Origin: Pseudomonadota bacterium
Lineage (GTDB): Bacteria; Pseudomonadota; Alphaproteobacteria; Sphingomonadales; SMXR01
Assembly: GCA_022566215.1 (NCBI GenBank)
Contig: JADFJJ010000003.1
Location: forward strand, 2,445-66,444
DNA length: 64,000 nt
Direction of reading: 5' to 3'
This document shows, piece by piece, positions 17,583-41,790 of the stretch. The notes beneath the pieces were generated by a model. That model was not told where the DNA came from, did not search any database, and was given only the letters and a program-made list of their open reading frames with translations. Position numbers and translations under genes: made by a program. The stretch's first letter is position 1. Each line of letters begins with the position of its first letter.

Positions 17583-18935
17583 CTAAACCACCCCGTAAGC
17601 GAGCATGGCGTCGGCAACCTTCTTGAAACCGCCGATGTTGGCGCCCTTGAGGTAGTTGATATAATTGTTGCTTTCCACTCCGTATTCCATGCATTTGCCG
17701 TGAATGTCGCTCATAATGGTGCGCAGATTTTTCTGCAGAACTTCCTCTTTCCAGGTCAGGCGGGCGGCGTTCTGGCTCATCTCCAGCCCCGAGACCGCGA
17801 CCCCACCGGCGTTGGCCGCCTTGGAGGGCGCGAACATGATTTTCGCATCCTGGAAGACCTGCACCCCTTCCAGGGTGGCTGGCATATTGGCCCCTTCCGA
17901 AACCCCGATGCAGCCGTATTTAACCAGCATTTCGGCATCCTTTTTCGAGATTTCGTTTTGAGTGGCGCACGGGAACGCCAGATCACACGGGATCCCCCAG
18001 GGTTTTTTGTTCTTGTGGAATTGGTAGCCGAACTCCTTGGCGAATTCGGCAATGCGCCCGCGCCGGACGTTCTTCAACTCCTTGATATAGGCCAGTTCGT
18101 CCCTGGAAATGCCGTTTGGGATATGAACAAAACCAGCGGAATCAGACGTGGTCACCACCTTGGCGCCCAGCTGCAGGGCTTTTTCACAGGCGTACTGCGA
18201 CACGTTGCCAGAACCGGAAATCACACAGGTTTTGCCCTCCAGGCTGTCCTTTTTCTCTTTCAGCATGTCTTCCATGAAATAGACGGTGCCATAGCCAGTC
18301 GCCTCGACCCGGATGTGGCTGCCGCCGTACTGCAGCGCCTTGCCGGTCAGCGCGCCGGTAAATTCGCGCTTCAGGCGCTTGTACTGGCCGAACAGGTAGC
18401 CGATCTCGCGCGCGCCGACGCCGATGTCACCGGCCGGGATATCCAAATTGGGGCCGATGTAGTTGAACAGCTCGCTCATGAAGGCCTGGCAGAAACGCAT
18501 CACCTCCCGGTCCGACTTGCCCTTCGGGTCGAAATCCGATCCGCCCTTGGCGCCGCCCATCGGCAGGCCGGTGAGCGAATTCTTGAAGGTCTGCTCAAAG
18601 GCCAGGAATTTCAGGATCGACAGGTTAACGCTGGGGTGAAAGCGCATGCCCCCCTTGTAGGGGCCGATCGCGTTGCTGTTTTGAACCCGGTAGCCGCGGT
18701 TGACCCGGATATTGCCCTGGTCGTCCTCCCAGCACACCCGGAACATGAACACCCGGTCGGGTTCCGCCAGGCGCTCCATGATGCGCATCTTGTGGTAAAT
18801 CGGTTTGTCTTCAATATAGGGGAAAATTTGTTCGGCTACTTCCTGGACGGCGTTGTGAAATTCAGTCTGTCCAAGGCTGTTCCTTTTGATTTTTTTCATG
18901 AAGACTTCAAGCTTGCCAGCGACCGAACTGTCCAT
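17583..18935 (-). CDS. gdhA: NADP-specific glutamate dehydrogenase
   Basis: GLPMGGAKGGSDFDPKG active-site motif and Rossmann GSGNVSQYA. Start at MDSSVAG (18935), preceded by GGAGG. Confidence 0.92.
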   Translation of the reverse strand: MDSSVAGKLEVFMKKIKRNSLGQTEFHNAVQEVAEQIFPYIEDKPIYHKMRIMERLAEPDRVFMFRVCWEDDQGNIRVNRGYRVQNSNAIGPYKGGMRFHPSVNLSILKFLAFEQTFKNSLTGLPMGGAKGGSDFDPKGKSDREVMRFCQAFMSELFNYIGPNLDIPAGDIGVGAREIGYLFGQYKRLKREFTGALTGKALQYGGSHIRVEATGYGTVYFMEDMLKEKKDSLEGKTCVISGSGNVSQYACEKALQLGAKVVTTSDSAGFVHIPNGISRDELAYIKELKNVRRGRIAEFAKEFGYQFHKNKKPWGIPCDLAFPCATQNEISKKDAEMLVKYGCIGVSEGANMPATLEGVQVFQDAKIMFAPSKAANAGGVAVSGLEMSQNAARLTWKEEVLQKNLRTIMSDIHGKCMEYGVESNNYINYLKGANIGGFKKVADAMLAYGVV

Positions 18936-27685: not shown

Positions 27686-28399
27686 TTAAGGTTTTACTTC
27701 AAGGCAAAAGACGCATTTGGAATGGGGCTTGTGTCTGGCGTGGCGGACCGTGGTGCGCTTCAGGGTCACCGGATAACTCCGGAACAGGGCTTGCCAGCCC
27801 TTGACGCTTCTGAAGGTGAGCGGCATCGGGATCGACAACAGCCCCTTGCCGGCCTCCCCTTTGACAACCCTGACGGCGCCGAACAGGATGTTGGTGTAAA
27901 AATCGTTCCACACCACGAACGCCCACTGCCAGGGCGAAAAATAGACGTCCTCGAAAATAATCACCTTATCCCTGGAGCAGCGGATCGCTTCCGCCAACAG
28001 TTCTTCCTGGTGTTCGACGTGATGCAGCATGAAGGCCAGGATAATGACGTCAAAAGCGCCGTCCCGGTGGGGGATTTTATGGCCGTCATAGAACTTCACC
28101 GGGATCTCGGCATGCTGGTAATCGACCACATCGACGCCCGAGACTTTGGCTTTGAGGCGATCAGCCACCGCCTTGCCGAAATGGCCGTTGCCGCAGCCGA
28201 CATCCAATACTTTATCGCCGGATTTGATCAGGCCTTCTACCGATTTCAGGCGCTCGCTAATCTCATTTTGCTGAGCCCGGCGCTGGATTTCGATGAATTT
28301 CTTTCTGGGGATAAAAAGGTTCACCACCAACGCAATGAGCGAGATGAAGAAAAAAATGATTGCGAACGGTAAATTCAGTATGTTTCTTATGATACTCAT
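27686..28399 (-). CDS. Membrane-anchored class I SAM-dependent methyltransferase
   Basis: Start taken at MSIIRNIL (28399). One N-terminal TM helix, then motif I VLDVGCGNGHFG and motif post-II DVIILAFMLHH. Confidence 0.7.
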   Translation of the reverse strand: MSIIRNILNLPFAIIFFFISLIALVVNLFIPRKKFIEIQRRAQQNEISERLKSVEGLIKSGDKVLDVGCGNGHFGKAVADRLKAKVSGVDVVDYQHAEIPVKFYDGHKIPHRDGAFDVIILAFMLHHVEHQEELLAEAIRCSRDKVIIFEDVYFSPWQWAFVVWNDFYTNILFGAVRVVKGEAGKGLLSIPMPLTFRSVKGWQALFRSYPVTLKRTTVRHARHKPHSKCVFCLEVKP

Positions 28400-28476
28400 G
28401 TTAGGCCGGGTTTTTAGCACAAGGAACAGAGAGAGGCACGTCCTTTTTCGCCCCAAATGCTTGAGGGAACTTTTGA

Positions 28477-30003
28477 GTGAAAACACCCCTGATTGATCAC
28501 AAATTCAAGGACCTCACCGACGTCCTGAGAGGAGCCGCGGCGTCGCTCGCCGGTTTTGCCGGACGAACCGCCGCCAGGGTCCTGTTCCTGTTTTTCGCCG
28601 GCAATTTTTACGGTGCGGTCAGGCTTGGCGAACTGGCCTCGGTGATCGCCGTGATTGAGATTCTGGTGATGCTGGGCATTTTCGGTTTCCGCCGCTCACT
28701 GCTGGAATTCCTGGAGGGGGCCAAGGGCAAGCCGGAACGGCAATATACCCTGGTGCTGACCGCCATGACGATCGTGTTTGCAATCGGCGCCACGCTGGCC
28801 GGAACCCTGGCGCTGCTGTGGGATTACATCGGCCTGAATATGAAAACCCCGCTTTACCCGCTGTTCGCCTTCCTGATCCCGTTTGTCGCTGTGATGGATG
28901 TGATCTTGACCACCACCCGGTTCAAGCGGATTGTCCGCCACGAAGTGTTCGCCCGGTCGCTGGTGGAACCGTGGACCCTGGCCCTGACAGCGGTGGCGTT
29001 TTATTTCTCAGGGGTCAGAGAATCCGGATTGCTGTTGGCCTACAGCGCCTCGCTGATCGCCGCTTTTATATATGCGCTCTATGCCTTCGGGCGGGTGTAT
29101 GAATGGAAAAAGCTGTTTAAATCCCGTGTCGACTTCAGCCTGGTTAAAAAAATGGCCTCGTTCAGCGGGCCGACCGCCCTGGTGGACGCCATCGGCGTGG
29201 CTTTCCGGCGCGCCGATATCATAGCGCTCAGTTTTTTCACCCCGGACGCGATCGTCGGCATTTACTATGGGGTCCAGAACCTGGCGACCGTGATCCAGAA
29301 GACCCGCCATGTGTTCGACCCGATCCTCTCACCGGTGCTCAACCAGACCTTGAGCCAGCGCGGCGTCAAGGACGCCGGCCAGCAACTGAGCCAGGTGTGC
29401 CGCTGGATCTTGACCCTGCTGGCTTTGCAGCTGGCGATCATGGCGTTTTACGCCGCCCCCTTGCTGGGCCTGATCGGCACCGGCTTTGCGGTTGGCGCCA
29501 TGGCGCTGATCATCATTCTCGCGGCGGAGGCGCTGGAAGGCACCCTGGCCAGCGCCGAACTGCCGTTCGTTTTCAAGAAACCGCTACTGAACCTCAGCCT
29601 GACCGCCACCGCCTTTGGCATTCATTTAGTGGGCCTGACCCTCCTGACCCCGCGCTTCGGGATGGTCGGCACAGCCTCGTCATTCCTGCTGGCGCTGTTC
29701 TGCCTCAATGGCCTGAGGCTGATTTTTATCAAGAAAAAGTTCGATATCTCGCTGCTGGCGTGGCGCTACCTGAAACCGATCGCTGCCGGAACGCTGGCTT
29801 ATCTGGCGCTTTATCAGGCGGGCAAGGTAATCGACCTGACCGCTGTTTATTTTGTTCCGGCCGGGATTGCCTTGGGGGTCGGGGTGTACGTGGCGGCCTT
29901 CTGGCTGATGGGGGCCAGCCAGGAAGACAGGGATTTTGTTGCTTATCTGAAAAGCCGTAAAAAACCGAAAATGGCGGTCGACAAGGATTTCGACCAAGTT
30001 TAG
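28477..30003 (+). CDS. MOP-superfamily (Wzx/polysaccharide-biosynthesis type) flippase-like membrane protein
   Basis: 508 aa (GTG start) with about 12-14 hydrophobic helices throughout and a composition typical of oligosaccharide/lipid flippases. No catalytic motif. Confidence 0.5.
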   Translation: MKTPLIDHKFKDLTDVLRGAAASLAGFAGRTAARVLFLFFAGNFYGAVRLGELASVIAVIEILVMLGIFGFRRSLLEFLEGAKGKPERQYTLVLTAMTIVFAIGATLAGTLALLWDYIGLNMKTPLYPLFAFLIPFVAVMDVILTTTRFKRIVRHEVFARSLVEPWTLALTAVAFYFSGVRESGLLLAYSASLIAAFIYALYAFGRVYEWKKLFKSRVDFSLVKKMASFSGPTALVDAIGVAFRRADIIALSFFTPDAIVGIYYGVQNLATVIQKTRHVFDPILSPVLNQTLSQRGVKDAGQQLSQVCRWILTLLALQLAIMAFYAAPLLGLIGTGFAVGAMALIIILAAEALEGTLASAELPFVFKKPLLNLSLTATAFGIHLVGLTLLTPRFGMVGTASSFLLALFCLNGLRLIFIKKKFDISLLAWRYLKPIAAGTLAYLALYQAGKVIDLTAVYFVPAGIALGVGVYVAAFWLMGASQEDRDFVAYLKSRKKPKMAVDKDFDQV

Positions 30004-30716
30004 GGCTTCTTGCTCAGGTATTTTTCCGCCAGATGGTACATCTCGGGGCTGTCGACATCGATCCAGACATGGTCGCCAATGGTATGGGTGAGCGCCCTGC
30101 CCGCTGCCGCCAGCTTCATCATGCCGCCGGAAATACTGAAGTCGTTCCCTTCGCGGCCGCTTTCAGCCAGGGCCTCAAACAAGGCATGTGAGGCCAGAAA
30201 GAGGCCGGTATCATAGGCGTTATAATTTTCCATTCCCTTGCCGATCGCCTTGATGCGGCCATCCTCGCTGAGCACCCGGGTGACATCTTCCAGATCAACA
30301 TATGGGTTATCAAGGCGGGTATCGATGGCCAGCATAACCTGGTCATCGGCAATCTCCCGGGCGGCCATTTCCCGGACCATTTCCGGGGCCATCAGGTGAT
30401 CGCACATGGACAGCAGGAAACGCTGGCCCATTTCCTGTCTGGCGGCAAAAACCGAAAGGCCGTTGGGTTTTTCGTAATCGGGATTGTAAACGGTGCGGAT
30501 CGAGACACCAATCCGGGGAGCAAGATTTTTCAGATAGGCATCAAGGACACTCGCCTCATACCCGGTGACCACCACAAATTCTGCCACCCCGGCTTTCGCT
30601 GCGTTTTCAATGACGTATTGGATCAGCGGTTTGCCGGCCAGCTCCACCAGCGGCTTGGAATTGCCGTGCCGGCGCAGACGCAGACCCTTGCCGGCGGCGA
30701 CGATCAAACATTGCAT
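30000..30716 (-). CDS. Sugar/inositol-phosphate nucleotidyltransferase (NTP_transferase fold); candidate CTP:inositol-1-phosphate cytidylyltransferase
   Basis: Canonical N-terminal signature LIVAAGKGLRLR...SKPLVELAGKPLI. 238 aa, immediately downstream of the inositol-phosphate synthase gene. Confidence 0.7.
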   Translation of the reverse strand: MQCLIVAAGKGLRLRRHGNSKPLVELAGKPLIQYVIENAAKAGVAEFVVVTGYEASVLDAYLKNLAPRIGVSIRTVYNPDYEKPNGLSVFAARQEMGQRFLLSMCDHLMAPEMVREMAAREIADDQVMLAIDTRLDNPYVDLEDVTRVLSEDGRIKAIGKGMENYNAYDTGLFLASHALFEALAESGREGNDFSISGGMMKLAAAGRALTHTIGDHVWIDVDSPEMYHLAEKYLSKKP

Positions 30717-30737
30717 GGTAGAAAATTCCTAAGATAC

Positions 30738-31874
30738 TTATTCAGCTGCTTCGGCTTCCAGCGCCGCCAGCTGGCTTTCCGGGCCCTGGATAAAGGCTTC
30801 GGTCATCTGGCGGGCTTCACTATCCGTGTACTGGTAGGGCGGATGCTTGCAGAAGTACGCGCTGGGCCCTTCGATAATTCCGGAAAGACCGCGGTCCAGC
30901 GCCAGCTTGCAGCAGCGGATGGTGTCAATCGCCACCCCCGCCGAATTGGGGCTGTCCTCGACGCTGAGGCGCAGTTCAATATTCATCGGCACGTCACCGA
31001 ACAGGCGCCCTTCCATGCGGATAAAACAGACCTTGTTGTCGTTCTGCCAGGCGACGTAATCGGACGGGCCAACGTGAATATTTTCATCATCCAGCCGGGA
31101 TGCAGCCACGCTCTGGACCGCCTCGGTCTTGGAAATCTTCTTGGAGGCGAGGCGCTTTTGGTTGCGCATGTTAAGAAAATCGGTATTGCCGCCGGTGTTC
31201 AGCTGGTAGGTGCGGTCCAGCGGCACCCCGCGCATGTTGAACAGATCGGTCAGCACCCGGTGAACAATGGTGGCCCCCAACTGGGCCTTGATGTCATCAC
31301 CGATGACCGGCAGGTTCTTGGCCTTGAAGCGGGCCGCCCATTCCGGATTGGAGGCAATAAAGACCGGGATGTTGTTGATAAAACCAAGGTTGGCTTCCAA
31401 AGCGCATTCAGCATAAAATTCGGTCGCCTTCTGGCTGCCCACCGGCAGGTAATTCAAAAGCATTTCAGCGCCGGAGCTTTTCAGGATCTCAACAACTTGT
31501 TCAAAAGTAGGCTGTTTGGCATCTGCCTTGATAAAGGTGCGGTGGGCGGGTTCGTCGGCCATGTGTTCGGAAAACCCGTCGAGGATTTTGCCCATGCGGA
31601 CCTTAACGCCGGCCTTCGGGACGTCCGGGCAGAAAACCTCGGTACAGTTCGGCAGCTCGAAAATAGCCTCTGAGACATCTTTGCCGACCTTGCGCTTGTC
31701 GATATCAAAAGCTGCCACCACTTCGATATCGGTTGGCAGGTAGCCGCCCAGGTCCCAGTGCATAAGACCGGCCGCATCACCGCCGCGTTTCCCCTTGTAG
31801 TAGTGAATACCCTGAAGGAGAGAGCTTACGCAATTGCCGACGCCAACAATTGCCACTTTGATTTTTCCGCTCAC
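30738..31874 (-). CDS. ino1: myo-Inositol-3-phosphate (inositol-1-phosphate) synthase, short archaeal/bacterial type
   Basis: KIKVAIVGVGNCVSSLLQGIHYY N-terminal NAD-binding motif. 378 aa, with conserved ...GDDIKAQLGAT... and SYQLNTGGNTDF-like segments. Confidence 0.85.
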   Translation of the reverse strand: MSGKIKVAIVGVGNCVSSLLQGIHYYKGKRGGDAAGLMHWDLGGYLPTDIEVVAAFDIDKRKVGKDVSEAIFELPNCTEVFCPDVPKAGVKVRMGKILDGFSEHMADEPAHRTFIKADAKQPTFEQVVEILKSSGAEMLLNYLPVGSQKATEFYAECALEANLGFINNIPVFIASNPEWAARFKAKNLPVIGDDIKAQLGATIVHRVLTDLFNMRGVPLDRTYQLNTGGNTDFLNMRNQKRLASKKISKTEAVQSVAASRLDDENIHVGPSDYVAWQNDNKVCFIRMEGRLFGDVPMNIELRLSVEDSPNSAGVAIDTIRCCKLALDRGLSGIIEGPSAYFCKHPPYQYTDSEARQMTEAFIQGPESQLAALEAEAAE

Positions 31875-32030
31875 TTTTTTACCTTTTTATTTCTAAAGGA
31901 CTTTCGCCCCGTTTACCCCGGCCAGCCTTTCAGGGCCCAACGAGGTGCTGATACAATATTTCGCCCGCTTCGTGAAGGGATTTTCCCTAAAAAAAGCGCT
32001 TGATAACAAAATTCCGAAAGATATTAATTT

Positions 32031-33383
32031 CTAAAAATAAGCCGTATCTTCGAAATTTTTCTTAATTTCAAGGCTTTTTTCACTTCCATAATCACGGACG
32101 CGAATAAAAAACCTGACCTGTGCCACAAAAAATGTGACCGCCGCATAAAATGCGACAAACCCAAATCCCCACAGCCAGGCATCCATCAAGGCAAAAGGAA
32201 TAAACATCCAAATTTGTGTATTTCGTCTCGCCCCGATAATCCTGAACTTGCGCTCAAAATCCCCGGCATCGTCCAGCTGTTTTCCGGTCAGCCGCCTGAA
32301 AAATTCCCCCTGAGCCACTTCGGCCCAGGCGAAAGCTACGATAATTATGGAGAGTGCCCACGGAAGAGCGTTCCCCTCAACGCCACTCAGATACCAGGCG
32401 ATGCCAAAGTACCATGAATATTCCACAATTTTGTCGAGAATGTGTTCAAATTCGCCAATCCGGGTTTGCATCATCTTGGTCCGGGCCAGTTTGCCGTCAA
32501 CCCCGTCCAGCACCCCGATCACCAGGGCGCCGGCTACGCCTAAGAGCATATCCCCGGTGGCGAACAGGTAAGTGATCCACATCCCCAAAACAAACGTGAC
32601 CAGCGTGATAAAATTTGGAGAGACCGGAGTTGGGCAAAGCTGTTCAACCAGAAAATTCTCAAATGGCGGGTGGACCCAGCGGGCGGGCCAGTCCAGCACA
32701 CCCTTCTGGGCGGTAGAGATCAATGCCCTGGTGGCCTTATCGGTCTCGGACTTTTCCGCCACCGGACGCCACATAACCTTTACCTCCCGGCGCCGGTCCG
32801 GCAAATAGGTAGGCATTTTGCTGATGTCCTTCAAGACCGCTTTTCCCTTGCCGATCGCCTCTTTCAGGATGGCCTTCAAAGGTTCCCGCCCAAAATCAAT
32901 GTAATTTGCGGCGGCCAGGACGTCCGTGCCAAGCACCGCCGCCGCGGAGGCGAACAGCACCTCCTGTCCCCCGCCCTTCAATTTCAGGCCAAGGCCTTTG
33001 CCGTAAATGACCGTGTTGGCGGGAAAGACGGCGACACACCGTTTTGATTTTGTGGAGGAGCCAAGAACCGCCTTCATGATCCTCTGGTCAATCAACACCC
33101 CCTCTTCCAGCACCAGGACTTTTTCATCAGCAATCCAGGGGCTGGCGGCAATGTCTTTCGGTGAGATAACCTCAACCGTCTTGGGAGCATTTTTGAAACG
33201 GGTCTTTTCCAGCAAATCGGCATGGCTCCGGGTCACCAGCCTGACGGTCTCAATTCCCAACTGTTTGATCTGGCGCAGCTGGCGCTCCAGCAGGGTAATG
33301 CCCCCCGCCTTGAGGAACGAGCGCGAAAGGTCATTATCCCCTTTGGCCTTGGCGTTTACGATTATCAGGGCGGAAATGTTCAT
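32031..33383 (-). CDS. Fusion protein: NTP-transferase-like N-domain + CDP-alcohol phosphotransferase membrane domain (IPCT/DIPPS-like architecture, both motifs atypical)
   Basis: The N-domain lacks GxGxR (it reads LIIVNAKAKGDNDLS). The C-domain has DGVDGKLAR-x8-G, but then EFEHILDK instead of x3-D-x3-D. The C-terminal half has 5-6 TM helices. Confidence 0.7.
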   Translation of the reverse strand: MNISALIIVNAKAKGDNDLSRSFLKAGGITLLERQLRQIKQLGIETVRLVTRSHADLLEKTRFKNAPKTVEVISPKDIAASPWIADEKVLVLEEGVLIDQRIMKAVLGSSTKSKRCVAVFPANTVIYGKGLGLKLKGGGQEVLFASAAAVLGTDVLAAANYIDFGREPLKAILKEAIGKGKAVLKDISKMPTYLPDRRREVKVMWRPVAEKSETDKATRALISTAQKGVLDWPARWVHPPFENFLVEQLCPTPVSPNFITLVTFVLGMWITYLFATGDMLLGVAGALVIGVLDGVDGKLARTKMMQTRIGEFEHILDKIVEYSWYFGIAWYLSGVEGNALPWALSIIIVAFAWAEVAQGEFFRRLTGKQLDDAGDFERKFRIIGARRNTQIWMFIPFALMDAWLWGFGFVAFYAAVTFFVAQVRFFIRVRDYGSEKSLEIKKNFEDTAYF

Positions 33384-33543
33384 ATCTAAAGATCAAACGT
33401 TGATGTTCTTTCCAAACAGGTGCAAGTAAAGGCACAAGGCCCGATGTGCAAGGAAAAACATTAATCCTTGAAATTCCTACGCCGGTTCCTTAAGCCAGTG
33501 TTCGGATGAATGTAACGGATATTCCGCCGCTTTGGAATTTTTA

Positions 33544-36018
33544 ATGGCAAAAAAAGAAGACCCGCAAAATCCTTTTATCAAAAAAATCGCCAGGTTTTAC
33601 CTGCGGTTTTGCGGACTGATTTTAGTGCTGACCCTGGCGTTGGCCTATGGCGCCTTTTCCAAAATTACCCAGCTTAAGATCGACACCAACATCCAGGCGC
33701 TGATGCCGGAAAATATTCCCAGCATCAAAAACCTGGAAAAAGTCCTCGAAAAAACCGGCAGTTTTTCCAGCGCCATGGTGGTTATCTCCTCCCCCGATCC
33801 GGATGCCGCGGTACGCTTTGCCCGCGCCATGCAGGCCAAGATCATGCTTGAGCTGGATTGGGTTGCATCGGCCGATTACGCTGAAGATTTCACTCTCTTT
33901 AACAACAACAAGCTGTTGTATATGGAGGAACAGGACCTCCTGAACCTGAAGGATTGGGTTAGTGACCAGGTCATCAAGAGGCGCGATGAAATCCTCGAAC
34001 AACTGACCGGGCTGCCGATCAACATTACCCTCAGGACCCAGCCCGGCCCAAGGCTTTTGACCGACCAACAAATCGAAGATATCCGCAGCCGGATCGAAGA
34101 CCCTGACAGCCCGATCCTCAGCAAGGGAACCCAGCGCCTGTTCCAGAGTGACGATAAGGAAGTGACCCTGCTGGTGGTCTGGCCCAGGGATTCGTCAATG
34201 AGCCTTGAGACCTCGAAAATAATAATCGAGGACCTTGAGGCTGCGGCTGAACAATTGAACCCGGCCGCCTTTCACCCCGAAATGACGGTCGGGATTGGCG
34301 GGCGCATCTACAATCGGGTGGTGCAATATAACGCCATCATGGATGATGTGAAATCAAGCAGCCTCATTTCCGGAGTGCTGATTTTGGTTTTGCTGACCCT
34401 TTATTTCCGCAGCTTGAGAGCGATTTTTTTCCTGGTCATTCCGCTGGCAACCGGGATTATCTGGACGTTGGGAGTAACCCAGATGGTGATTGGCGGGCTC
34501 AATTTGATCACCATATTCCTGGTGCTGATTCTGTTCGGGCTGGGGATTGACTTTGGCATCCACGGCCTTTCCCGATACCGCGAGGCGCGCATTTCCGGCG
34601 CTTCGGTTGAGGAAGCGATTTGTATTATCATCAGCCGCACCGGGGCCGCCTCGCTGATGGCCGGGGTCACCACAGCGGTCGGGTTTTTTGCCCTCCTTAT
34701 CACTGATTTCAGGGCCTTTTACGAATTCGGGTTCATTGCCGGAACCGGGATCATCCTCACTTATATTTCCACCTACACGATGCTGCCGGCGATGTTGGCG
34801 CTGGCGGAAAAATACGGCCTTTACAAAACCGGCAAGGTGTTCGTTTCCCCGTTCAGGTTCAAAGGCAAGAAATACCCGCGCCCGTGGCGTACCATTATCG
34901 GCATAGGGGTTCTTCTGGTCATCAGCGCCGGGCTGGCGACCCTGGTCTCCTTTGAAAACGATTTCGGCAAGCTGCAGGCTGAACGCAACCCCGAACACCA
35001 GGCGATTGGAGCCAAAATCGCCAAGGTGTTCCCGGATGGCACCGACCGGGCAGTGTTGATTGTCGACACTCTGCAGGAGATCAAGGCGATCACTGACTAT
35101 TTCAACGACTACATCGAAAAAGACACAGAAACTCCAACCATCCGAAAGATTGACAGCATTTTCTCCTACCTTCCGGAGGAGGCTGAGCAGGAGAAAAAAC
35201 TGAAGATCATCAACGACATCAAGGATGCCCTGGGCGGTTTTGACGTTTCGCTGGAAGAAGAGGGTCTCGGCGAGGGCATGCTGCAGACCTATCTCGATAT
35301 CGGCAAGCTCAGCCCGGATGACCTGCCCGAAGGCCTGAAACGCGTCTACAAGGGCCTTCCCGGCACCCCCGGTTATCTTCTGTATATTTTTAATTCGGTG
35401 TCCATGTACCAGGCCGACAAGGCGCGCCAGTTCGCCGACGACATCCGTGAGTTTACGGTCGAAGGCAAAACCTATTATCCGGCCACCGAAGCGCTTATTT
35501 TTGTCGACATGCTGAGCCTGATGAAGAAAGAGGCGGGGTGGGCCATCCTGGCGGTCTCGGTCGTCACCCTGATGATGCTGTTCCTGTTCTTCCGCAATCT
35601 CAAATGCGCCTTTCTGGTTCTTTCCCCAACGCTGGCGGGGCTGTTGATCCTGTTCGGCGCCATGGGCCTGTTTGATATCCGGCTTTCGATTTTCAATATG
35701 GTGATCCTGCCCACCATCATCGGCATCGGGGTTGATAACGGCATTCATATTTACCACCGCTACCGCGAGGAACGCGGCAACGTTATGAAGGTGCTGTTTA
35801 CCACCGGCGGCGCGGCGGCGGTCACCACGGTGACCACCGCGCTCGGCTTTTCCGGCATGCTGACCGCGCAGATGGGCGGGTTGCAATCGCTGGGGATTTT
35901 GGCGACCATCGGCCTGGCGGCCTGTCTCTTCACCAGCTGGACCCTGCTGCCAGCGCTCCTGCAAAATAAAAAATTAATTCTGGAGCCTGAGCATATTGTG
36001 TTTGAAGCGGACACTTGA
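33544..36018 (+). CDS. MMPL/RND-superfamily exporter (HpnN/COG1033-like)
   Basis: About 825 aa with two 6-TM bundles, each followed by a large soluble loop. Duplicated motif GLGIDFGIHGLSRYREAR / GIGVDNGIHIYHRYREER. The ORF begins at TTG 33532, and ATG 33544 is taken as the start. Confidence 0.75.
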   Translation: MAKKEDPQNPFIKKIARFYLRFCGLILVLTLALAYGAFSKITQLKIDTNIQALMPENIPSIKNLEKVLEKTGSFSSAMVVISSPDPDAAVRFARAMQAKIMLELDWVASADYAEDFTLFNNNKLLYMEEQDLLNLKDWVSDQVIKRRDEILEQLTGLPINITLRTQPGPRLLTDQQIEDIRSRIEDPDSPILSKGTQRLFQSDDKEVTLLVVWPRDSSMSLETSKIIIEDLEAAAEQLNPAAFHPEMTVGIGGRIYNRVVQYNAIMDDVKSSSLISGVLILVLLTLYFRSLRAIFFLVIPLATGIIWTLGVTQMVIGGLNLITIFLVLILFGLGIDFGIHGLSRYREARISGASVEEAICIIISRTGAASLMAGVTTAVGFFALLITDFRAFYEFGFIAGTGIILTYISTYTMLPAMLALAEKYGLYKTGKVFVSPFRFKGKKYPRPWRTIIGIGVLLVISAGLATLVSFENDFGKLQAERNPEHQAIGAKIAKVFPDGTDRAVLIVDTLQEIKAITDYFNDYIEKDTETPTIRKIDSIFSYLPEEAEQEKKLKIINDIKDALGGFDVSLEEEGLGEGMLQTYLDIGKLSPDDLPEGLKRVYKGLPGTPGYLLYIFNSVSMYQADKARQFADDIREFTVEGKTYYPATEALIFVDMLSLMKKEAGWAILAVSVVTLMMLFLFFRNLKCAFLVLSPTLAGLLILFGAMGLFDIRLSIFNMVILPTIIGIGVDNGIHIYHRYREERGNVMKVLFTTGGAAAVTTVTTALGFSGMLTAQMGGLQSLGILATIGLAACLFTSWTLLPALLQNKKLILEPEHIVFEADT

Positions 36019-36070
36019 TTGGGCTATGAAGCAGGCCCGAATTAAATTTCAAGAGCATTAATATATACTG

Positions 36071-36928
36071 ATGTCCTCGCGCGCCCCGGAAATTGAAGAT
36101 TACAGCAATCTGTGGCTGTTTCACCCGATCAGCCACCGGCTGGCGAAAGCTTTGAGCAAGACCCCTGTTCACCCCAACATGGTATCCTTTGCCGGGGCTG
36201 TTTTCGGAGTTTTGGCGGCCATCAATTATTATCATTATGATCAGGGGAATTCAGCTCTCTTGGCTTTTTTCTATATGTTGGTCTGGCACGTCCTGGATGG
36301 CACCGACGGCCAACTGGCTCGACTTACAGGCAAGGCCACCACGGCAGGCCGGGCGATCGACGGAATGGCCGATCATCTGGTTTATATTTCTGTTTATGTC
36401 GCCCTGGGTCTGGCGCTAACCGAGCAGATGTCAGGTTTTGTTTTCATTTGGGCGCTTGTCGCCGGGGCCTCCCACGCACTTCAAGCATCGCTCCTGGACC
36501 GGCAACGGCAAGTCTATCTGTTTTGGGTATACAGCGGAAAGGCGGGGGGAAAACCGTCCCGGCCGATCCCGCCAAAGTCAAAATTCTTAAGAGGTTTGCA
36601 CATGTATTTTCAGATAACAGCCGATTATTTTGACAGCAGCGACACCCCCAGACAACTGGCGTATGACCTGAAAATTGGCAAATCCGGGAGTGAACTGGCT
36701 TCCGCCTATTATAGAAAAAATTATGTCAATTACCTTCATACCTGGTCGCTGGTCAGCCCCAATGCGCACACCGCCGCAATTTTCATTTTCGCCTACCTGG
36801 GCCAGCCGCTTTATTATTTCCTGTTTGAAATTTTCGTCATGAACGCTATCGTTTTCATTCTGCTGCGGTTCAAAAAGCATAAGGACGCCGCTTTTTGTGA
36901 CTGGATGAAAAACGTGAAACGCAAATAG
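36071..36928 (+). CDS. CDP-alcohol phosphotransferase family membrane protein (canonical motif)
   Basis: DGTDGQLAR-LTGKATTA-G-RAI-D-GMA-D fits DGx2ARx8Gx3Dx3D exactly. 285 aa, multi-TM. Confidence 0.8.
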   Translation: MSSRAPEIEDYSNLWLFHPISHRLAKALSKTPVHPNMVSFAGAVFGVLAAINYYHYDQGNSALLAFFYMLVWHVLDGTDGQLARLTGKATTAGRAIDGMADHLVYISVYVALGLALTEQMSGFVFIWALVAGASHALQASLLDRQRQVYLFWVYSGKAGGKPSRPIPPKSKFLRGLHMYFQITADYFDSSDTPRQLAYDLKIGKSGSELASAYYRKNYVNYLHTWSLVSPNAHTAAIFIFAYLGQPLYYFLFEIFVMNAIVFILLRFKKHKDAAFCDWMKNVKRK

Positions 36929-37039: not shown

Positions 37040-39415
37040 ATGTTTAGGATCCGCTTATTTGGTTTAATTCTTGCGGCCTTTGCATGCCTTGCCTTGAGCG
37101 CATGTGGCGGGCCGGCAAAACCGTCACCGGGAGGAGGTACGGTTGCGCCGCCTCCTCCGCCGCCGCCGCCCCCTCCTCCGCCGCCGCCGCCCCCTCCTCC
37201 TACGGACAACACCCCCATGCCGGCCGCCGGTACGGGTGCTTTTGCAACTAATGAATACCGGGCCAACTGGGGCCTGAATGCGGTCAACCCGATACCCGCC
37301 TACGAGGCCGGGGCAACCGGGTTGGGGGTTTCAGTGGCGGTGATTGACACCGGCCTTAACGTTGACCACACCGATCTTGACGACAACGTAGATCCCAACA
37401 GCATCGATATAGTTGGCCACGGAGATTCAGACGTGTTTGGCCCGGATTTACATGGTACCCAGGTAGCTGGAATCATAGCGGCTGAGAAAAACAACAGCGG
37501 AATGCACGGGGTTTCTTTTGAATCCCTGATCATGGCCATCAGGATTGATTTCGCAGATTCCTGTTCTAACGAAACCGATTGTATTTTTTTTACAAGTGAT
37601 ATTGTTCGCGCCATAGATTATGCCGTCGCCCATGGCGCCCGGGTCATAAACCTCAGCTTAGGCGGAGATGGCGCCAGCAGCGATTTGATTGCCGCGCTGG
37701 CGGCCGCGGTTGATGCCGGTGTGTTTGTTGTCATTTCCGCCGGCAACGATAGCGAAGGTAACCCCAGCGCCACCGCCCAGGTCGCCTTGTCCGCCGGAAT
37801 TTCCGGCGGCATGTTGATCGTCGGCGCGATTGGCGCCAACGGCACTCTTGCCTCTTTTTCCAACCGGGCGGGTAATTCCCGGAATGTCTTTGTGGTCGCC
37901 CCCGGAGTGAATATTTTCACGACCTCCAATAATAATATTTACGCCCGGGTCAGCGGAACCTCTTTCGCCGCTCCCCATGTGTCCGGCGCCGCGGCGCTGT
38001 TGTTTTCCCTTTTCCCCAATCTGGTGGGAACCGATATATTTGATATCCTGACCCAAACAGCTACCGATTTCGGCGCCAACGGGGTCGACAACGTCTACGG
38101 CTTTGGGCTGATCGATATCGGCGCCGCGCTTCAGCCGCTGGGGCCGCAGTCGATTGTCACCATGTCCTTAACCAGTGATGAGATGATCGACATTTCCATG
38201 GACGACACCGGCGGCGGGTTCTCGATCGCCTTTGGCGACGCCATATTCAATGCTCAGGGGTTTTCCTCGGTCATGATGCTGGACGGTTTCAGGCGCTCCT
38301 ACATGGTCGATTTAAGCTCCCGGATGGAGGCCCTGTACCGGCCCAGCCTGTCACTGGCCGATGCCATCGAAAGCCGCCGCCAGCGCCAGTCGCTGTTTAT
38401 TCCGCTCTCCGGCGCCGGCAGCCTGTCATTTTCCTTCTACGACCGCTACCGGCTGATCCGCGACCTGGCCCCGGCGCTCAGCATGGCGACCCAGGACCTG
38501 CTCAGGCAGGAAGCCCCGGCGACCTTTTTCCAGTCCACGCTCAAGGATGATCTGACTTTAAGTTTTGCCTTCGGCTTTAGCCCCGGTGATGTTCTGATGC
38601 GCCAGGGGGATTTGAACACTGCCGGATATGGGTTTCTGACCGCCAATTTCGGCGGCGCCACGCATCTTTCCCTGGCCAGTTCGCCCAAGACCGTCAATTT
38701 GAAGAAAACCACGGATGGCAAGATTTCGCTGCTGTTCGGGGTTTCCACGGGCACCTATAACGTTGCCGAATTCCTGCCCTATGCCAGCAATCTCCCGAAA
38801 GCCACCGTCACCTCTACCTATATCCGCGCCGCCCGCAAATCGGGGGCGCTGATGTTGAACCTGACGGCCGGGGTGATGGAAGAGAAAAACGCCGTCCTGG
38901 GCAGCATTTCAACCGGGGCGCTGACACTTGGCGACGGGGCCGCCACTGCCTTCCTCGGGGTCCAGGGGGAAGTGGATCTGGGCCGGGGGTTTTCCCTGTT
39001 CGGCCAGTATGAGGCCGGCTGGACCTCGGTCAAGGGAGCGGAGTTTAGCCTGATCGGGAATGTTTCCAGTTTCCGCACCTCCAGCTTTACCGCGGCGCTG
39101 ACCAAAAACCGGGTGTTCGGGAAACGCGACCGGATCGGGATCGCCGTCCACCAGCCGCTGCGGGTGGAAAACGGGACCCTGTCGCTGGTCTTGCCGACCG
39201 GGCGCGATTATGCCATCGACCGGATTCTCTTCAGCAATGACCGGGCCGGGCTGAGCCCCTCCGCGCGCGAGATTGATGTCGAGATCAGCTACCGCCTGGT
39301 CACCCGCGCCGGGTTCACCTTCGAGGCCAACCTGGTGCACCAGTTCAACCCCGGCCACACCATCAACCTCAGCCACGCCAGCGCGGTCCTGTTCCGCCTC
39401 ACCAAGGTTTATTAA
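37040..39415 (+). CDS. Lipoprotein-type subtilisin (S8) autotransporter (NalP/SphB1-like architecture)
   Basis: Lipobox LALSAC-GG, an 18-residue poly-Pro linker, and the S8 triad contexts VAVIDTGL, HGTQVAGII and GTSFAAPHVSGAAALL. The C-terminal approximately 270 aa form a beta-barrel-like translocator. Confidence 0.85.
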   Translation: MFRIRLFGLILAAFACLALSACGGPAKPSPGGGTVAPPPPPPPPPPPPPPPPPPTDNTPMPAAGTGAFATNEYRANWGLNAVNPIPAYEAGATGLGVSVAVIDTGLNVDHTDLDDNVDPNSIDIVGHGDSDVFGPDLHGTQVAGIIAAEKNNSGMHGVSFESLIMAIRIDFADSCSNETDCIFFTSDIVRAIDYAVAHGARVINLSLGGDGASSDLIAALAAAVDAGVFVVISAGNDSEGNPSATAQVALSAGISGGMLIVGAIGANGTLASFSNRAGNSRNVFVVAPGVNIFTTSNNNIYARVSGTSFAAPHVSGAAALLFSLFPNLVGTDIFDILTQTATDFGANGVDNVYGFGLIDIGAALQPLGPQSIVTMSLTSDEMIDISMDDTGGGFSIAFGDAIFNAQGFSSVMMLDGFRRSYMVDLSSRMEALYRPSLSLADAIESRRQRQSLFIPLSGAGSLSFSFYDRYRLIRDLAPALSMATQDLLRQEAPATFFQSTLKDDLTLSFAFGFSPGDVLMRQGDLNTAGYGFLTANFGGATHLSLASSPKTVNLKKTTDGKISLLFGVSTGTYNVAEFLPYASNLPKATVTSTYIRAARKSGALMLNLTAGVMEEKNAVLGSISTGALTLGDGAATAFLGVQGEVDLGRGFSLFGQYEAGWTSVKGAEFSLIGNVSSFRTSSFTAALTKNRVFGKRDRIGIAVHQPLRVENGTLSLVLPTGRDYAIDRILFSNDRAGLSPSAREIDVEISYRLVTRAGFTFEANLVHQFNPGHTINLSHASAVLFRLTKVY
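37148..37201 (+). repeat. Poly-proline coding microsatellite (18 Pro codons, 21-nt unit duplicated)
   Basis: CCTCCTCCGCCGCCGCCGCCC occurs twice in tandem (37151-37192), flanked by further CCN codons. Confidence 0.9.
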
Positions 39416-39423
39416 ACACCCCC

Positions 39424-40815
39424 TCAAGGGGTCGCCACCGGCAGCTGTAATTCGACCTTGAGGCCGCCCATCTTGGACCTTTTGAGGTGCGCCTTGCCGC
39501 CATAAATCTGGGTAATGTCGCGGACAATCGCCAGCCCCAGGCCTGAGCCGGGAACCCCTTCATCCATTTTTTTGCCACGCCGGTAAAGCGAGGGCCGCTG
39601 GTTGCGGTCGACCCCCGGGCCGTCATCCTCAACAATCAAAATCATGGCGACCGGGGCGCCGTTTACCCTTTTGCATTTGGCGGTGACGCGAATTTTCGAG
39701 GCGGCCCATTTGGCGGCGTTGTCCAGCAGGTTGCCAAGGATTTCCTCCAGGTCCTGTTTTTCGCCGTGGAACATCAGTCCCGGCTCGATTTCCACCGTTA
39801 GCTCCAGGTTTCGTTTCTGGTAGAGGCGCTGGATGGTGCGCCCGACGTTGATGATCGAAACCTCCACCTCTGTCTTGGCCTTGATGTGCCGGGAATGGCC
39901 GATCGCCCGGGCGCGCGCCAGCTGATGGTCGACATTGCGGCGGATGATGGTGGTCTGTTTGCCCACCAGCTCTGAAAACCGGGTTTTCTTATGTGAGGCA
40001 ATTTCATTGGAAATAATCGACAGGGGTGTTTTCAGTGAGTGGGCCAGGTTGCCCATCTGGGTCCGGGCCCGCTCGACCAGGGTTTCATTCTGGGCCAGCA
40101 CTGCGTTCATTTCATCCACCAGCGGCTTGATCTCGGGCGGACAGTCCTGGGGCAGGCGCTTGCGGTTGCCCTCGCGAATCTCCGACAGGCCGGTTTTGAC
40201 ATCCCTGAGCGGGGACAGGCCGAAAGCCACCTGCAAAACCATCGCCACCACGATACCGAAACCCAGCCCCCCCAGCGACCATATAACAATCCGGTTAAAG
40301 TGGGCGATGTGGCTAAGCATTTCGCTGACGTCGCTGGCCATCATAAAGATGAAGGTCTGGTCGGTTCCGGGGAGCAATATTTCCCTTTCAAGAATCCGCA
40401 GCGTCTGGCCTTCGGGTCCCGGAGCCTCATAGGTTCTGCGCACCAGGCCAGCATTGCTGAAATCTACCGTCAGCTCCTGGTCCCAAAGCGACCGCGAGCG
40501 GATGCTTTCTTGCCCAACCGCCGAGATTTGCCAATACCAGCCTGAATATGGTTCGTTAAAACGCTGGTCGCTCAAGGGGCGGGAAAAGATGATCGTCCCG
40601 TCATCGCCAATGTCGCTGACGCCGATCATGCTGTCCATGGTCTGGCTGAGGCGGTCATCGGTTTCGGTTTCGACGTGATCGCGAAACGCCGCCGAAAGCA
40701 ATATGCCCCCCACTGTCAGGGCCAGCATCAGCCACAGCAGGGAAGCCAGCAATAGCCGGCCGGTCAGGGACTTCGGGTTGGCCCAGGGGAATTTCGATGC
40801 TTTATTCGCCCTCAT
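39424..40815 (-). CDS. Sensor histidine kinase (periplasmic sensor, HAMP, HisKA, HATPase)
   Basis: H-box NLAHSLKTPLS, N box LGNLLDNAAKWA, G boxes VEDDGPGV and GSGLGLAIV. Start taken at MRANKAS (40815), overlapping the regulator gene by 14 nt. Confidence 0.85.
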   Translation of the reverse strand: MRANKASKFPWANPKSLTGRLLLASLLWLMLALTVGGILLSAAFRDHVETETDDRLSQTMDSMIGVSDIGDDGTIIFSRPLSDQRFNEPYSGWYWQISAVGQESIRSRSLWDQELTVDFSNAGLVRRTYEAPGPEGQTLRILEREILLPGTDQTFIFMMASDVSEMLSHIAHFNRIVIWSLGGLGFGIVVAMVLQVAFGLSPLRDVKTGLSEIREGNRKRLPQDCPPEIKPLVDEMNAVLAQNETLVERARTQMGNLAHSLKTPLSIISNEIASHKKTRFSELVGKQTTIIRRNVDHQLARARAIGHSRHIKAKTEVEVSIINVGRTIQRLYQKRNLELTVEIEPGLMFHGEKQDLEEILGNLLDNAAKWAASKIRVTAKCKRVNGAPVAMILIVEDDGPGVDRNQRPSLYRRGKKMDEGVPGSGLGLAIVRDITQIYGGKAHLKRSKMGGLKVELQLPVATP

Positions 40816-41473
40816 CCGGATCCGCCAGACGATAGCCCAGGCCGCGCTTGGTTTGAATGATATTGACGCCAAGTTTTTTGCGGATGCGATTAATAAATAC
40901 CTCGATAGTATTTGAATCCCGGTCAAAATCCTGGTCGTAGATATGTTCGGTCAGTCCGGTCCTGGAAATAATCTCGTCCCGGTGGTGCATCAGGTAAGAA
41001 AGCAGTTTGTATTCCAGTGCCGTCAGCTTGATCGCCTGGCCATCGACCGTGACTTTTGAATTTTTGGTGTTCAGGGTCACCGGGCCGCAGGAAATATCGC
41101 TGGTCGCCAAGCCCGAGGAGCGCCTGATCAGGGCGCGCACACGGGCCAACAGCTCTTCCATCTTGAACGGCTTGGTCAAATAATCATCGGCGCCGGCGTC
41201 AAGCCCGGCGACCTTTTCGCTCCAGGTGTCCCTTGCGGTCAGGATCAAAACCGGAAAGATGTGTCCGGCGCCGCGCCATTTTTCCAGAACGCTGACCCCA
41301 TCCATGATCGGCAGTCCGAGATCAAGGATTATCACATCATAAGGCTCGGTATCGCCCAGGAAGTGCCCTTCCTCGCCGTCCCCCGCACAATCCACCACAT
41401 AGCCCGAATCAATCAGGGCCTTTTTGATCTGCCGCGATAGATCCGGTTCGTCTTCGACCAGTAAAACGCGCAT
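40802..41473 (-). CDS. OmpR/PhoB-family response regulator
   Basis: Receiver MRVLLVEDE...DVIILDLGLP...LILTAR, and a winged-helix output LTALEYKLLSYLM...GLGYRL. Confidence 0.9.
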   Translation of the reverse strand: MRVLLVEDEPDLSRQIKKALIDSGYVVDCAGDGEEGHFLGDTEPYDVIILDLGLPIMDGVSVLEKWRGAGHIFPVLILTARDTWSEKVAGLDAGADDYLTKPFKMEELLARVRALIRRSSGLATSDISCGPVTLNTKNSKVTVDGQAIKLTALEYKLLSYLMHHRDEIISRTGLTEHIYDQDFDRDSNTIEVFINRIRKKLGVNIIQTKRGLGYRLADPDEGE

Positions 41474-41475
41474 TC

Positions 41476-41790
41476 CTATCTCCCGCTGGTTTTAATGACG
41501 TTGCCGGTTTTTGCGTCCATGACCACCGACATGACCTTGCCGTCCTCGTTAAGCAGTTTTAATTCATAGACCCATTTTCCGGGGCCGGTCTGGCGGAGTT
41601 TCTGTCCGACCACCCGGCCGCCGAACCGCTGCTCGGCCTGCCGGGCGATTTGCCCGTAGGGAATAAGATCACCTTTCTTCCTGCCCTTCAGGGCTTCATC
41701 CTGATCCGGACGGGCAACCCCGGCCCCGGGCACGGCGGCAAGGAAGAAAAGGCATACAAGGCCTGACAATATGGTGCGCATGATGTTCAT
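41476..41790 (-). CDS. PepSY-domain periplasmic protein
   Basis: 104 aa with a signal peptide. ...GRVVGQKLRQTGPGKWVYELKLLNEDGKVMSVVMDAKTG is PepSY-like. It sits first in the operon with the two-component pair. Confidence 0.6.
   Translation of the reverse strand: MNIMRTILSGLVCLFFLAAVPGAGVARPDQDEALKGRKKGDLIPYGQIARQAEQRFGGRVVGQKLRQTGPGKWVYELKLLNEDGKVMSVVMDAKTGNVIKTSGR

Follow-up and report, generated by a model that had tools for sequence, protein, structure and literature searches.

What does an alphaproteobacterium make with genes for the synthesis, activation and transfer of inositol phosphate that are set among membrane exporters? The question is raised by a cluster of seven genes (positions 27686 to 36928) in a 64-kb stretch of contig JADFJJ010000003.1, from a Sphingomonadales bacterium (assembly GCA_022566215.1); the whole of this stretch is referred to here as the window. 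Our answer, held with moderate confidence, is that the region encodes a CDP-inositol-dependent module for the synthesis and export of an inositol phospholipid. That ceramide anchors this lipid in this organism is a narrower claim, to which we give slightly less than an even chance, and a di-inositol-phosphate step carried out by one of the two transferases is a tentative proposal that we regard as rather improbable.

We mapped the open reading frames (ORFs) of the window and searched the encoded proteins against Pfam and NCBIfam profiles. An initial annotation had named seven ORFs; all were found, at the same coordinates or a few codons off, and the domain names given to them were borne out. 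The ORF map also reproduced the two divergent operons sharing an intergenic region at 33384-33543. The cluster contains the following features:

27686..28399 (extendable to 28486), minus strand: class I S-adenosylmethionine (SAM) methyltransferase (Pfam Methyltransf_23/11/25)
28477..30003, plus strand: flippase of the MOP superfamily, Wzx-like (Pfam Polysacc_synt PF01943)
30000..30716, minus strand: predicted stand-alone CTP:L-myo-inositol-1-phosphate cytidylyltransferase, IPCT (NTP_transf_3, 60.9 bits)
30738..31874, minus strand: myo-inositol-3-phosphate (= L-myo-inositol-1-phosphate) synthase, MIPS, of the short prokaryotic type (Inos-1-P_synth PF01658)
32031..33383, minus strand: FUSED, 450 amino acids (aa), predicted pseudo-IPCT domain plus DIPPS-like CDP-alcohol phosphotransferase (CDP-OH_P_transf, residues 255-350)
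33384..33543, no strand: shared divergent intergenic region (ORF map)
33544..36018 (possible TTG start at 33532), plus strand: MMPL / HAE3-type RND exporter (Pfam MMPL)
36071..36928, plus strand: CDPOH2, 285 aa, CDP-alcohol phosphotransferase (Pfam PF01066)

The IPCT and MOP genes are convergent, and their stop codons overlap. An Rfam search of the window returned tRNA matches only, none of them within the cluster or the 33384-33543 region. Scans of the cluster for promoters and terminators yielded nothing interpretable above expectation, and the promoter-like matches in 33384-33543 were weak.

The first steps of the pathway are supported by homology to known enzyme families. The MIPS protein scored 120.9 bits on Pfam PF01658 and 419 bits on TIGR03450, under the equivalog cutoff of 638. 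For the IPCT protein, the closest solved relative was the CTP:inositol-1-phosphate cytidylyltransferase of A. fulgidus (2xme), matched over its full length (residues 1-230; E = 1.8e-22), followed by the IPCT domain of 4mnd (E = 9.6e-22, full length) and then by the nucleotidyl transferase 4jd0. The NCBIfam IPCT/DIPPS model NF041135 was matched at 124 bits over its N-terminal half only. The signature loop AAGKGLRLR...SKPL is intact, and this loop, together with full-length similarity to a characterized enzyme, predicts that the product of 30000-30716 is an IPCT. Membership of the cytidylyltransferase and the methyltransferase in the DVU_1551 and DVU_1556 families was rejected, with scores far under the cutoffs. 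Inositol-phosphate synthesis, CTP activation and CDP-alcohol transfer, the enzymology first read from this cluster, are thus supported at the level of family homology.

FUSED is the unusual member of the set. Its C-terminal half reached 35.1 bits on Pfam CDP-OH_P_transf (cutoff 22), and residues 1-200 matched no Pfam model. An AlphaFold2 model built from a 29-sequence alignment (pLDDT 89.6) predicted two domains, a nucleotidyltransferase domain and a six-helix CDP-alcohol phosphotransferase, which is the fold of IPCT/DIPPS. In Foldseek searches, the best match of this model was the A. fulgidus IPCT-DIPPS structure 4mnd over the whole length (TM 0.64/0.69, 457 columns). For the membrane half, further matches were AF2299 (second-best) and phosphatidylinositol phosphate (PIP) synthases; the N-terminal half matched many nucleotidyltransferases. 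Profile comparison agreed: positions 3-415 of the FUSED family profile aligned with residues 41-442 of 4mnd (E = 1.4e-17). On NF041135, FUSED scored 62.5 bits over the C-terminal half only, and the curated cutoff of 580 was not reached. The family comprises 320 representatives at 50% identity (E < 1e-30). Sequence and model together indicate that FUSED is homologous to archaeal IPCT-DIPPS along its full length and belongs to a large undescribed family.

Both halves of FUSED depart from the archaeal enzyme. In the profile alignment to 4mnd, the catalytic loop GxGTR...K is replaced: FUSED reads IIVNAKAKGDNDLSRSF where AfIPCT has ILAAGLGTRLGGVPKPL, and the stretch "vdqeaedesdearal" stands opposite the catalytic AAGLGTRLGGVPKPL. 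Because of this alignment, we take the N-terminal domain to be an IPCT homologue that lacks the catalytic loop. The GxGxR/K loop was missing from 29 of 29 aligned members, from nine more genome loci and from 135 of 138 distant representatives, and the cytidylyltransferase domain is predicted to be degenerate and catalytically dead. The remaining three distant representatives keep GxGxR, which shows that the FUSED ancestor was truly bifunctional. In the transferase half, the motif reads DGVDGKLAR-x8-G-x2-E313-H314-x2-D317 in the window and DG-x-DGK-x-AR-x8-G-x2-E-H-x2-D across the family: the third catalytic Asp has become a Glu, which a one-residue deletion places one residue nearer the Gly, and an extra conserved His follows.

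The second transferase, CDPOH2, has a conventional active site. It scored 49.4 bits on PF01066 and carries the exact class I signature D-x2-D-G-x2-A-R-x8-G-x3-D-x3-D, reading LDGTDGQLARLTGKATTAGRAIDGMAD, whereas FUSED passes the Pfam threshold with the variant D-x2-DG-x2-AR-x8-G-x2-E-x3-D. An AlphaFold2 model of CDPOH2 (pLDDT 92.9) has an insertion of ∼70 residues between helices four and five, and family-specific residues (H135, R146, N231) lie in the C-terminal half. The two transferases are paralogous (30% identity over 129 residues; hhalign probability, 98.5%), and a conserved Arg is present at the end of transmembrane helix 4 (TM4) and at the start of TM5 in both families. The best PDB match of the CDPOH2 family profile was AF2299 (60.7 bits); DIPPS and the eukaryotic choline/ethanolamine phosphotransferases (CEPT1) were matched about as well as PIP synthases. 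We set the transferases apart from PgsA, PssA, Pcs and DIPPS by hidden Markov model and profile scores rather than by trees. FUSED had no PgsA, PssA, Pcs or ClsA match at E ≤ 0.01 among NCBIfam models, and CDPOH2 had no PgsA or Pcs match, with weak sub-cutoff scores for pssA (22.8 bits versus 107) and ClsA (21.3 bits versus 240). On three models for PIP synthase or archaetidylinositol-phosphate synthase (NF045883, NF052561 and NF040950; cutoffs 170, 350 and 180), FUSED scored 31.1, 32.3 and 46.1 bits; CDPOH2 scored 35.5 bits on the first and 51.4 bits on the third, again under the cutoffs, and did not match the second. Neither protein reached any NCBIfam cutoff, and a housekeeping phospholipid synthase identity for the two, one of the outcomes that the initial annotation had named as refuting its proposal, finds no support in these scores.

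Conservation separates a core from its accessories. In a species-genome set holding one genome per species, relatives of FUSED are encoded in 376 stretches; the gene counts that follow refer to the best 80 of these loci. Their carriers are almost all Alphaproteobacteria (Sphingosinicella, Polymorphobacter, Sandaracinobacter, Sandarakinorhabdus, Novosphingobium, Glacieibacterium, Emcibacter, Paremcibacter, Kordiimonas and metagenome-assembled genomes [MAGs]); Sphingomonadales make up most of them, joined by Emcibacter and Kordiimonas. They include glacier and freshwater Sphingomonadales and are mesophiles or psychrophiles. MIPS adjoins FUSED at 76 of the 80 loci, CDPOH2 adjoins it divergently at 68, and IPCT is present next to MIPS at 65, in an order that is nearly always CDPOH2 divergent from FUSED-MIPS-IPCT. 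A MOP gene was found at five FUSED loci, an MMPL gene at four and the methyltransferase at one. Given these counts, the widely conserved unit consists of four genes: CDPOH2, FUSED, MIPS and IPCT. All seven genes recur at loci L094, L095 and L096, where FUSED is 63, 53 and 52% identical, respectively; the outer flanks differ at L095 and L096, and the methyltransferase gene is relocated at L096. In Kordiimonas marina (L023), six genes are clustered in a changed order. Since the core recurs at most of the 80 loci and the full set at L094-L096, the grouping is not a product of chance. The proposed co-conservation of all seven genes thus stands for the four-gene core, but MMPL, MOP and the methyltransferase are clade-limited: they are accessory genes of the clade to which the window belongs, genuinely linked to the cassette.

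Each accessory was identified at the family level. The MOP protein scored 43.6 bits on PF01943, above the gathering threshold of 28.2, and matched no NCBIfam equivalog. Its gene is linked to the cassette at L001, L002, L004, L006 (Emcibacter), L023 (Kordiimonas) and L094-L096, and nonorthologous Polysacc_synt genes lie beside transferase relatives at L089, L090, L091, L093, L122 and L138. The MMPL protein scored 155 bits on Pfam MMPL (cutoff 20.5) and is HpnN-like. An identity with HpnN itself was rejected, as the scores (TIGR03480 HpnN, 304.7 bits versus 751.85; NF052374, 187.4 bits versus 1100) are far below the equivalog cutoffs, and the BstA model gave 209 bits against a cutoff of 1400. 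The MMPL gene lies between FUSED and CDPOH2 at L003, L004, L094, L095 and L096; in Kordiimonas (L023) it immediately follows FUSED. The methyltransferase matched Methyltransf_23 at 53.5 bits. Of its two possible starts, ATG at 28399 is likelier than GTG at 28486, and a hydrophobic N-terminal segment is then present. Its gene adjoins the MOP gene at L001, L094 and L095 and lies within the FUSED-MIPS-IPCT operon at L096; it was not at the remaining loci.

Several observations concern genes that border the cassette. A Wzi-like capsule-assembly outer-membrane protein is encoded after it at 35 Sphingomonadales loci (e.g., L015 13123-14685), and a DUF2141 gene follows it in Novosphingobium (e.g., L048 13454-13825), DUF2141 also being found within the inositol/ceramide clusters L091 and L092 described below. 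On the CDPOH2 side, the window encodes a PepSY protein, an OmpR-type response regulator and a PhoQ-like histidine kinase (39424-41790, minus strand). Histidine kinase matches occur on the same side at L002 and L004, a response regulator and histidine kinase lie beside CDPOH2 at L095, and the full PepSY-regulator-kinase set is present at L096 despite a different outer flank; this set may regulate the lipid module. Directly after CDPOH2 lies a gene for an S8 serine protease (37040-39415, plus strand) with a lipoprotein-like N terminus, a run of 27 prolines and a long C-terminal region, rich in beta structure, that is autotransporter-like in look; its position is kept at L002-L004 only. A 783-aa Sphingosinicella protein encoded beside CDPOH2 was considered as its counterpart and rejected for lack of similarity, both being local synteny. 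The nuoN-birA-coaX-RNase J genes that flank the cassette in Sphingomonadales were likewise rejected as part of the system, as they are housekeeping genes.

The gene context of relatives in other lineages points to a lipid product. The Bacteroidales protein P0214 is a full-length CDPOH2 homologue (27% identity, E = 2.6e-20) that shares invariant residues outside the motif. Its locus also carries CarboxypepD_reg, NTP-transferase, LPG_synthase_TM, HAD hydrolase and MIPS genes. In this content it matches the "alternative" inositol-lipid cluster that Heaver et al. proposed for B. vulgatus and Prevotella, which were shown to make inositol-phosphoryl-dihydroceramide (PMC9246714). In proteobacterial MAGs, loci L089, L091 and L092 cluster MIPS and a 238-aa IPCT with a CDPOH2 homologue and have in common an LptF/LptG pair, a GT4 glycosyltransferase, a PIG-L-family deacetylase, a radical-SAM protein and a MOP flippase. 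L089 and L092 add a 376-aa GNAT resembling bacterial ceramide synthase (bCerS-like), an AMP-binding ligase and an epimerase-type reductase; L092 further encodes an acyl carrier protein and an alpha-oxoamine synthase resembling serine palmitoyltransferase (Spt-like), and L091 and L092 encode a GT32 (Gly_transf_sug) protein and DUF2141. By analogy, these three loci look like a bacterial counterpart of glycosyl-inositol-phosphoceramide or glycosylphosphatidylinositol-like chemistry.

In soil metagenomes, an operon of Spt-like, CDPOH2-like and 380-aa bCerS-like GNAT genes is divergent from a distant relative of FUSED (L138, L140, L149, L156-158 and L169), and Spt-like and bCerS-like genes also flank a CDPOH2 relative at L093; with L092, these are the loci at which the ceramide gene set lies beside CDPOH2 or FUSED relatives. 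The soil Spt-like protein reached 318 bits on the serine palmitoyltransferase model (cutoff 500) and 326 to 338 bits on BioF/Kbl-family models. L138 additionally holds an IPCT-like gene, a radical-SAM gene, a MOP flippase, a sphingolipid-desaturase-like Lipid_DES/FA_desaturase gene and an SDR that matches the 3-ketodihydrosphingosine reductase model among other SDR models. At the soil locus L122 (1890-9254), a FUSED-like gene is the last of a TolC-TolC-HlyD-MacB-ABC operon whose neighbors are GT-C, GT9, MOP, SDR and IPCT-like genes, with MIPS 7 kb away. In gene orders that bear no relation to one another, the set of FUSED, CDPOH2, IPCT and flippase is thus repeatedly tied to ceramide synthesis and to exporters that span the envelope. 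The exporters near relatives are of three types (MOP, LptFG and MacB-TolC), so that the suspected link to lipid or glycan export recurs outside the window.

A Verrucomicrobiota MAG (L090, 215-11720) carries a related set that differs in content: nucleotidyltransferases and CDP-alcohol transferases are encoded by two genes each, together with a MOP flippase, a bCerS-like GNAT, a class III aminotransferase, a HAD hydrolase and an oxidoreductase of the GFO/IDH/MocA type, with no MIPS in the cluster. The head group made here may be another one, perhaps an aminocyclitol.

These findings suggest the following route. By family-level homology, MIPS would convert glucose-6-phosphate to L-myo-inositol-1-phosphate, and the stand-alone IPCT would make CDP-L-myo-inositol. 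Comparative genomics suggests that CDPOH2 then moves inositol phosphate from CDP-inositol to a membrane lipid alcohol. The acceptor would most likely be ceramide, giving inositol phosphoceramide; the alternative is diacylglycerol, giving phosphatidylinositol. The Bacteroidales and proteobacterial versions have no transferase other than CDPOH2, and CDPOH2 is the most likely lipid-linking enzyme. FUSED may take CDP-inositol from the same pool to carry out a second transfer. In the DIPPS reaction, CDP-inositol is coupled to the inositol ring of inositol-1-phosphate; as the simplest neofunctionalization, FUSED could add a second phospho-inositol to lipid-bound inositol-1-phosphate, yielding a di(inositol-phosphate) head group, while its dead IPCT domain could bind CDP-inositol or dock the free IPCT. 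In the window's clade, the product might be flipped through the inner membrane by MOP, handed on toward the outer membrane by the MMPL pump and modified by the membrane methyltransferase. We regard it as a speculative and rather doubtful proposition that FUSED represents a new enzyme class which, with CDPOH2, makes di(inositol-phosphoryl)-ceramides that are exported by MOP and MMPL in this clade. The fungal M(IP)2C head group is an analogue of such lipids. The exported lipid or polymer that had been predicted is narrowed to a product with a lipid anchor, probably ceramide by our inference, and a free polymer is less likely.

Several observations weigh against a module for an exported inositol lipid, and against its ceramide version in particular. 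MOP flippases usually carry undecaprenyl (polyprenyl)-linked glycans. We infer both the product and all transfer steps beyond CDP-inositol. Ceramide-synthesis genes were found neither in the 64-kb window nor within 10 kb of the alphaproteobacterial loci, and the carriers Emcibacter and Kordiimonas are not known to us as sphingolipid producers. Glacieibacterium-type loci (L042, L060, L070) have locally only FUSED and MIPS, with unrelated neighbors that say nothing about function. Both transferases retain the conserved arginines, and both are six-helix proteins, a build tied to soluble acceptors (Clarke et al., PMC4634129). In favor of a sphingolipid, most genome carriers belong to the Sphingomonadales, an order of sphingolipid producers in which ceramide genes are known to be scattered (PMC11324152). 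The only alphaproteobacterium reported with an inositol-phosphoceramide-like lipid is Novosphingobium acidiphilum, in which Heaver et al. found no homology to either Bacteroides cluster (PMC9246714). It was not among the top 120 matches of a homology search with FUSED of N. aquae, which listed N. aquae and Novosphingobium spp. MW5, TH158 and NPDC080210. A link between the cassette and the N. acidiphilum lipid is unconfirmed, and we do not rely on it.

Among other explanations, the one that survives best, although we judge it unlikely, is that phospho-inositol is added to a glycan (an undecaprenyl-linked oligosaccharide, capsule or lipopolysaccharide-like polymer) which is then flipped by the Wzx-like MOP protein. 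Polyprenyl-linked glycans are the normal cargo of Polysacc_synt proteins, and both the Wzi-like protein at 35 Sphingomonadales loci and the GT4, GT9, GT32 and PMT_2 glycosyltransferases beside relatives would fit such a product. However, domain searches found no glycosyltransferase or polyprenyl-phosphate transferase in the window's cluster, and known class I CDP-alcohol phosphotransferases use lipid or small soluble alcohols (PMC4634129). A lipid fits better with the MMPL partner and with the ceramide genes seen in context, and the glycosyltransferases found elsewhere would equally suit the glycosylation of inositol phosphoceramide.

Somewhat less probable still is a di-myo-inositol-phosphate (DIP) pathway, in which FUSED, as a DIPP synthase, would work with MIPS and IPCT to make a soluble solute, CDPOH2 and the transporters being separate. 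IPCT-DIPPS is the nearest characterized relative of FUSED by sequence, profile and fold; FUSED is six-helix, and a conserved Arg in it aligns with an Arg of AfDIPPS. The operon of MIPS, IPCT and a DIPPS-like gene matches the gene set reportedly described for this pathway (Rodionov 2007, Rodrigues 2007), and DIP genes have been proposed as pressure adaptations of deep-sea archaea. Against this, FUSED falls far short of the IPCT/DIPPS cutoff (62.5 bits versus 580), and the Glu substitution with shortened spacing extends across a family of hundreds. The carriers include glacier and freshwater Sphingomonadales and are not thermophiles. FUSED is almost always divergently paired with a membrane-lipid-type paralogue, and elsewhere it sits in ceramide clusters or ends a MacB-TolC operon, which would be odd for a cytoplasmic solute. 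Because of the altered active site, the pseudo-domain, the nonthermophilic hosts and the operon contexts, a solute reading is weakened: the DIP-synthesis logic invoked for the cluster at the outset holds for IPCT-DIPPS ancestry but not for the likely function.

The PIP-synthase route (CDP-diacylglycerol plus inositol-1-phosphate to PIP and on to phosphatidylinositol) operates in mycobacteria (Actinobacteria) and Bacteroides thetaiotaomicron and is the sole genetically proven bacterial route. That one or both transferases belong to it, with the cytidylyltransferase serving another purpose, is very improbable: the weak matches to PIP synthase and archaetidylinositol-phosphate synthase models and the conserved arginines at the end of TM4 and the start of TM5, near the site at which PIP synthases bind phosphate (PMC4634129), speak for it, but the scores are 31 to 51 bits against cutoffs of 170 to 180, the IPCT that is co-operonic at 65 of the 80 loci has no role in that route, the conserved cassette holds no PIP phosphatase (PgpA, HAD or PAP2 type), and the CDPOH2 profile matches users of soluble CDP-alcohols (AF2299, DIPPS, CEPT1) no worse than PIP synthases.

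If the proposed CDP-inositol-dependent lipid module is correct, it bears on a group of lipids considered rare in bacteria; the CDP-inositol route to them is still a hypothesis, put forward for some Bacteroidota. Full-text literature searches returned no description of the cassette, the FUSED family or the link to ceramide clusters. A bacterial pathway to inositol (sphingo)lipid head groups via CDP-alcohol chemistry is known already; what is new is a widespread variant of it and an enzyme family. A CDPOH2-type family that had been hypothetical is conserved with IPCT and MIPS in Alphaproteobacteria, nearly always beside the undescribed FUSED family. FUSED itself would document the change of an enzyme into a pseudoenzyme within a membrane protein, from IPCT to a docking or regulatory domain. 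Candidate genes are now at hand for inositol-headed sphingolipids and for their export by MOP, MMPL, LptFG-like and MacB-type systems, and perhaps for the unexplained inositol-phosphoceramide-like lipid reported in a Novosphingobium. Were the di-inositol-phosphoryl proposal true, inositol sphingolipids would be widespread and overlooked in the envelopes of Sphingomonadales and many soil bacteria. Several carriers are cultured, among them Sphingosinicella xenopeptidilytica, S. soli, Polymorphobacter arshaanensis, Sandaracinobacter neustonicus, Novosphingobium aquae, Kordiimonas marina and Luteithermobacter gelatinilyticus, which makes the prediction directly testable.

Around the cluster, the window's flanks are unrelated housekeeping and regulatory genes: gamma-glutamyltranspeptidase, MarR, glyoxalase, nitrilase and M16 peptidases on one side, and the S8 protease and PhoQ-like two-component system on the CDPOH2 side. 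The remainder is ordinary chromosome. A tRNA-Thr at 5067-5142 is the sole tRNA called by both Rfam and ARAGORN; a tRNA-like Rfam match at 8897-8969 (plus strand, 45 bits) had no ARAGORN call. G+C content is 0.46 to 0.49 at 4001-6000 and 14001-18000, versus 0.53 to 0.60 elsewhere, and the second of these segments holds a 901-aa hybrid PAS histidine kinase/response regulator. An ORF at 12984-14045 (minus strand) carries in its C-terminal part a Mucin2_WxxW repeat domain (58.7 bits), an unusual find in bacteria.

Among characterized proteins, FUSED is most like the A. fulgidus IPCT-DIPPS (4mnd): each combines a nucleotidyltransferase fold, a juxtamembrane helix and a six-helix CDP-alcohol phosphotransferase, and FUSED is likewise linked to MIPS and IPCT genes. 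Unlike in 4mnd, the N-terminal domain of FUSED is without the GxGTR...K loop, and a separate, predicted active IPCT is encoded beside it. The transferase motif is altered (Glu for the third Asp, shorter spacing, conserved His), FUSED occurs in soil bacteria and in Alphaproteobacteria that are mesophilic or psychrophilic, and it is paired with a second transferase, with lipid exporters and, elsewhere, with ceramide genes. AF2299 (4o6m), an archaeal CDP-alcohol phosphotransferase with a noncatalytic cytoplasmic domain, offers a precedent for a donor pocket for soluble CDP-alcohols and for a domain outside the membrane. To our knowledge, its physiological substrates are not established, and we know of no inositol or ceramide genes in its context. 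The window's MMPL protein shares with the HpnN, MmpL and BstA pumps a signature of twelve helices and two periplasmic domains; it scores best on the HpnN (hopanoid) and BstA (sterol) models, yet its gene is linked to inositol genes and not to those for hopanoids or sterols.

At the level of whole clusters, the "alternative" cluster of Bacteroides (Phocaeicola) vulgatus and Prevotella shares with the window MIPS, a nucleotidyltransferase and a homologous CDP-alcohol transferase, and CDP-inositol chemistry is likewise proposed for it, in a pathway that is functionally unconfirmed there (PMC9246714). Similarity between the two nucleotidyltransferases is confined to the N-terminal 80 residues. In the Bacteroidales cluster, the nucleotidyltransferase is 565 aa long and is accompanied by a HAD hydrolase and LPG_synthase_TM but by no FUSED, MMPL or MOP, whereas domain searches detected neither a HAD hydrolase nor LPG_synthase_TM in the window. 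In Caulobacter crescentus (CC_1152-CC_1168), the head group of an anionic sphingolipid is assembled by nucleotidyltransferases and CC_1159, which has a CDP-alcohol transferase domain, and export is proposed to run through a dedicated flippase and a second set of LptC/F/G (LptC2/F2/G2) (Olea-Ozuna et al. 2024, PMC11324152). That head group is phosphoglycerate rather than inositol, ceramide genes adjoin the Caulobacter cluster but not that of the window, and the exporters are Lpt2 there and MMPL here (PMC11324152). Loci L089, L091 and L092 join a Caulobacter-type layout with MIPS, IPCT and CDPOH2, a likeness of layout. The initial annotation had matched the cluster to no described pathway; no identical one has emerged, but the Bacteroidales "alternative" cluster and the Caulobacter layout give it partial precedent.

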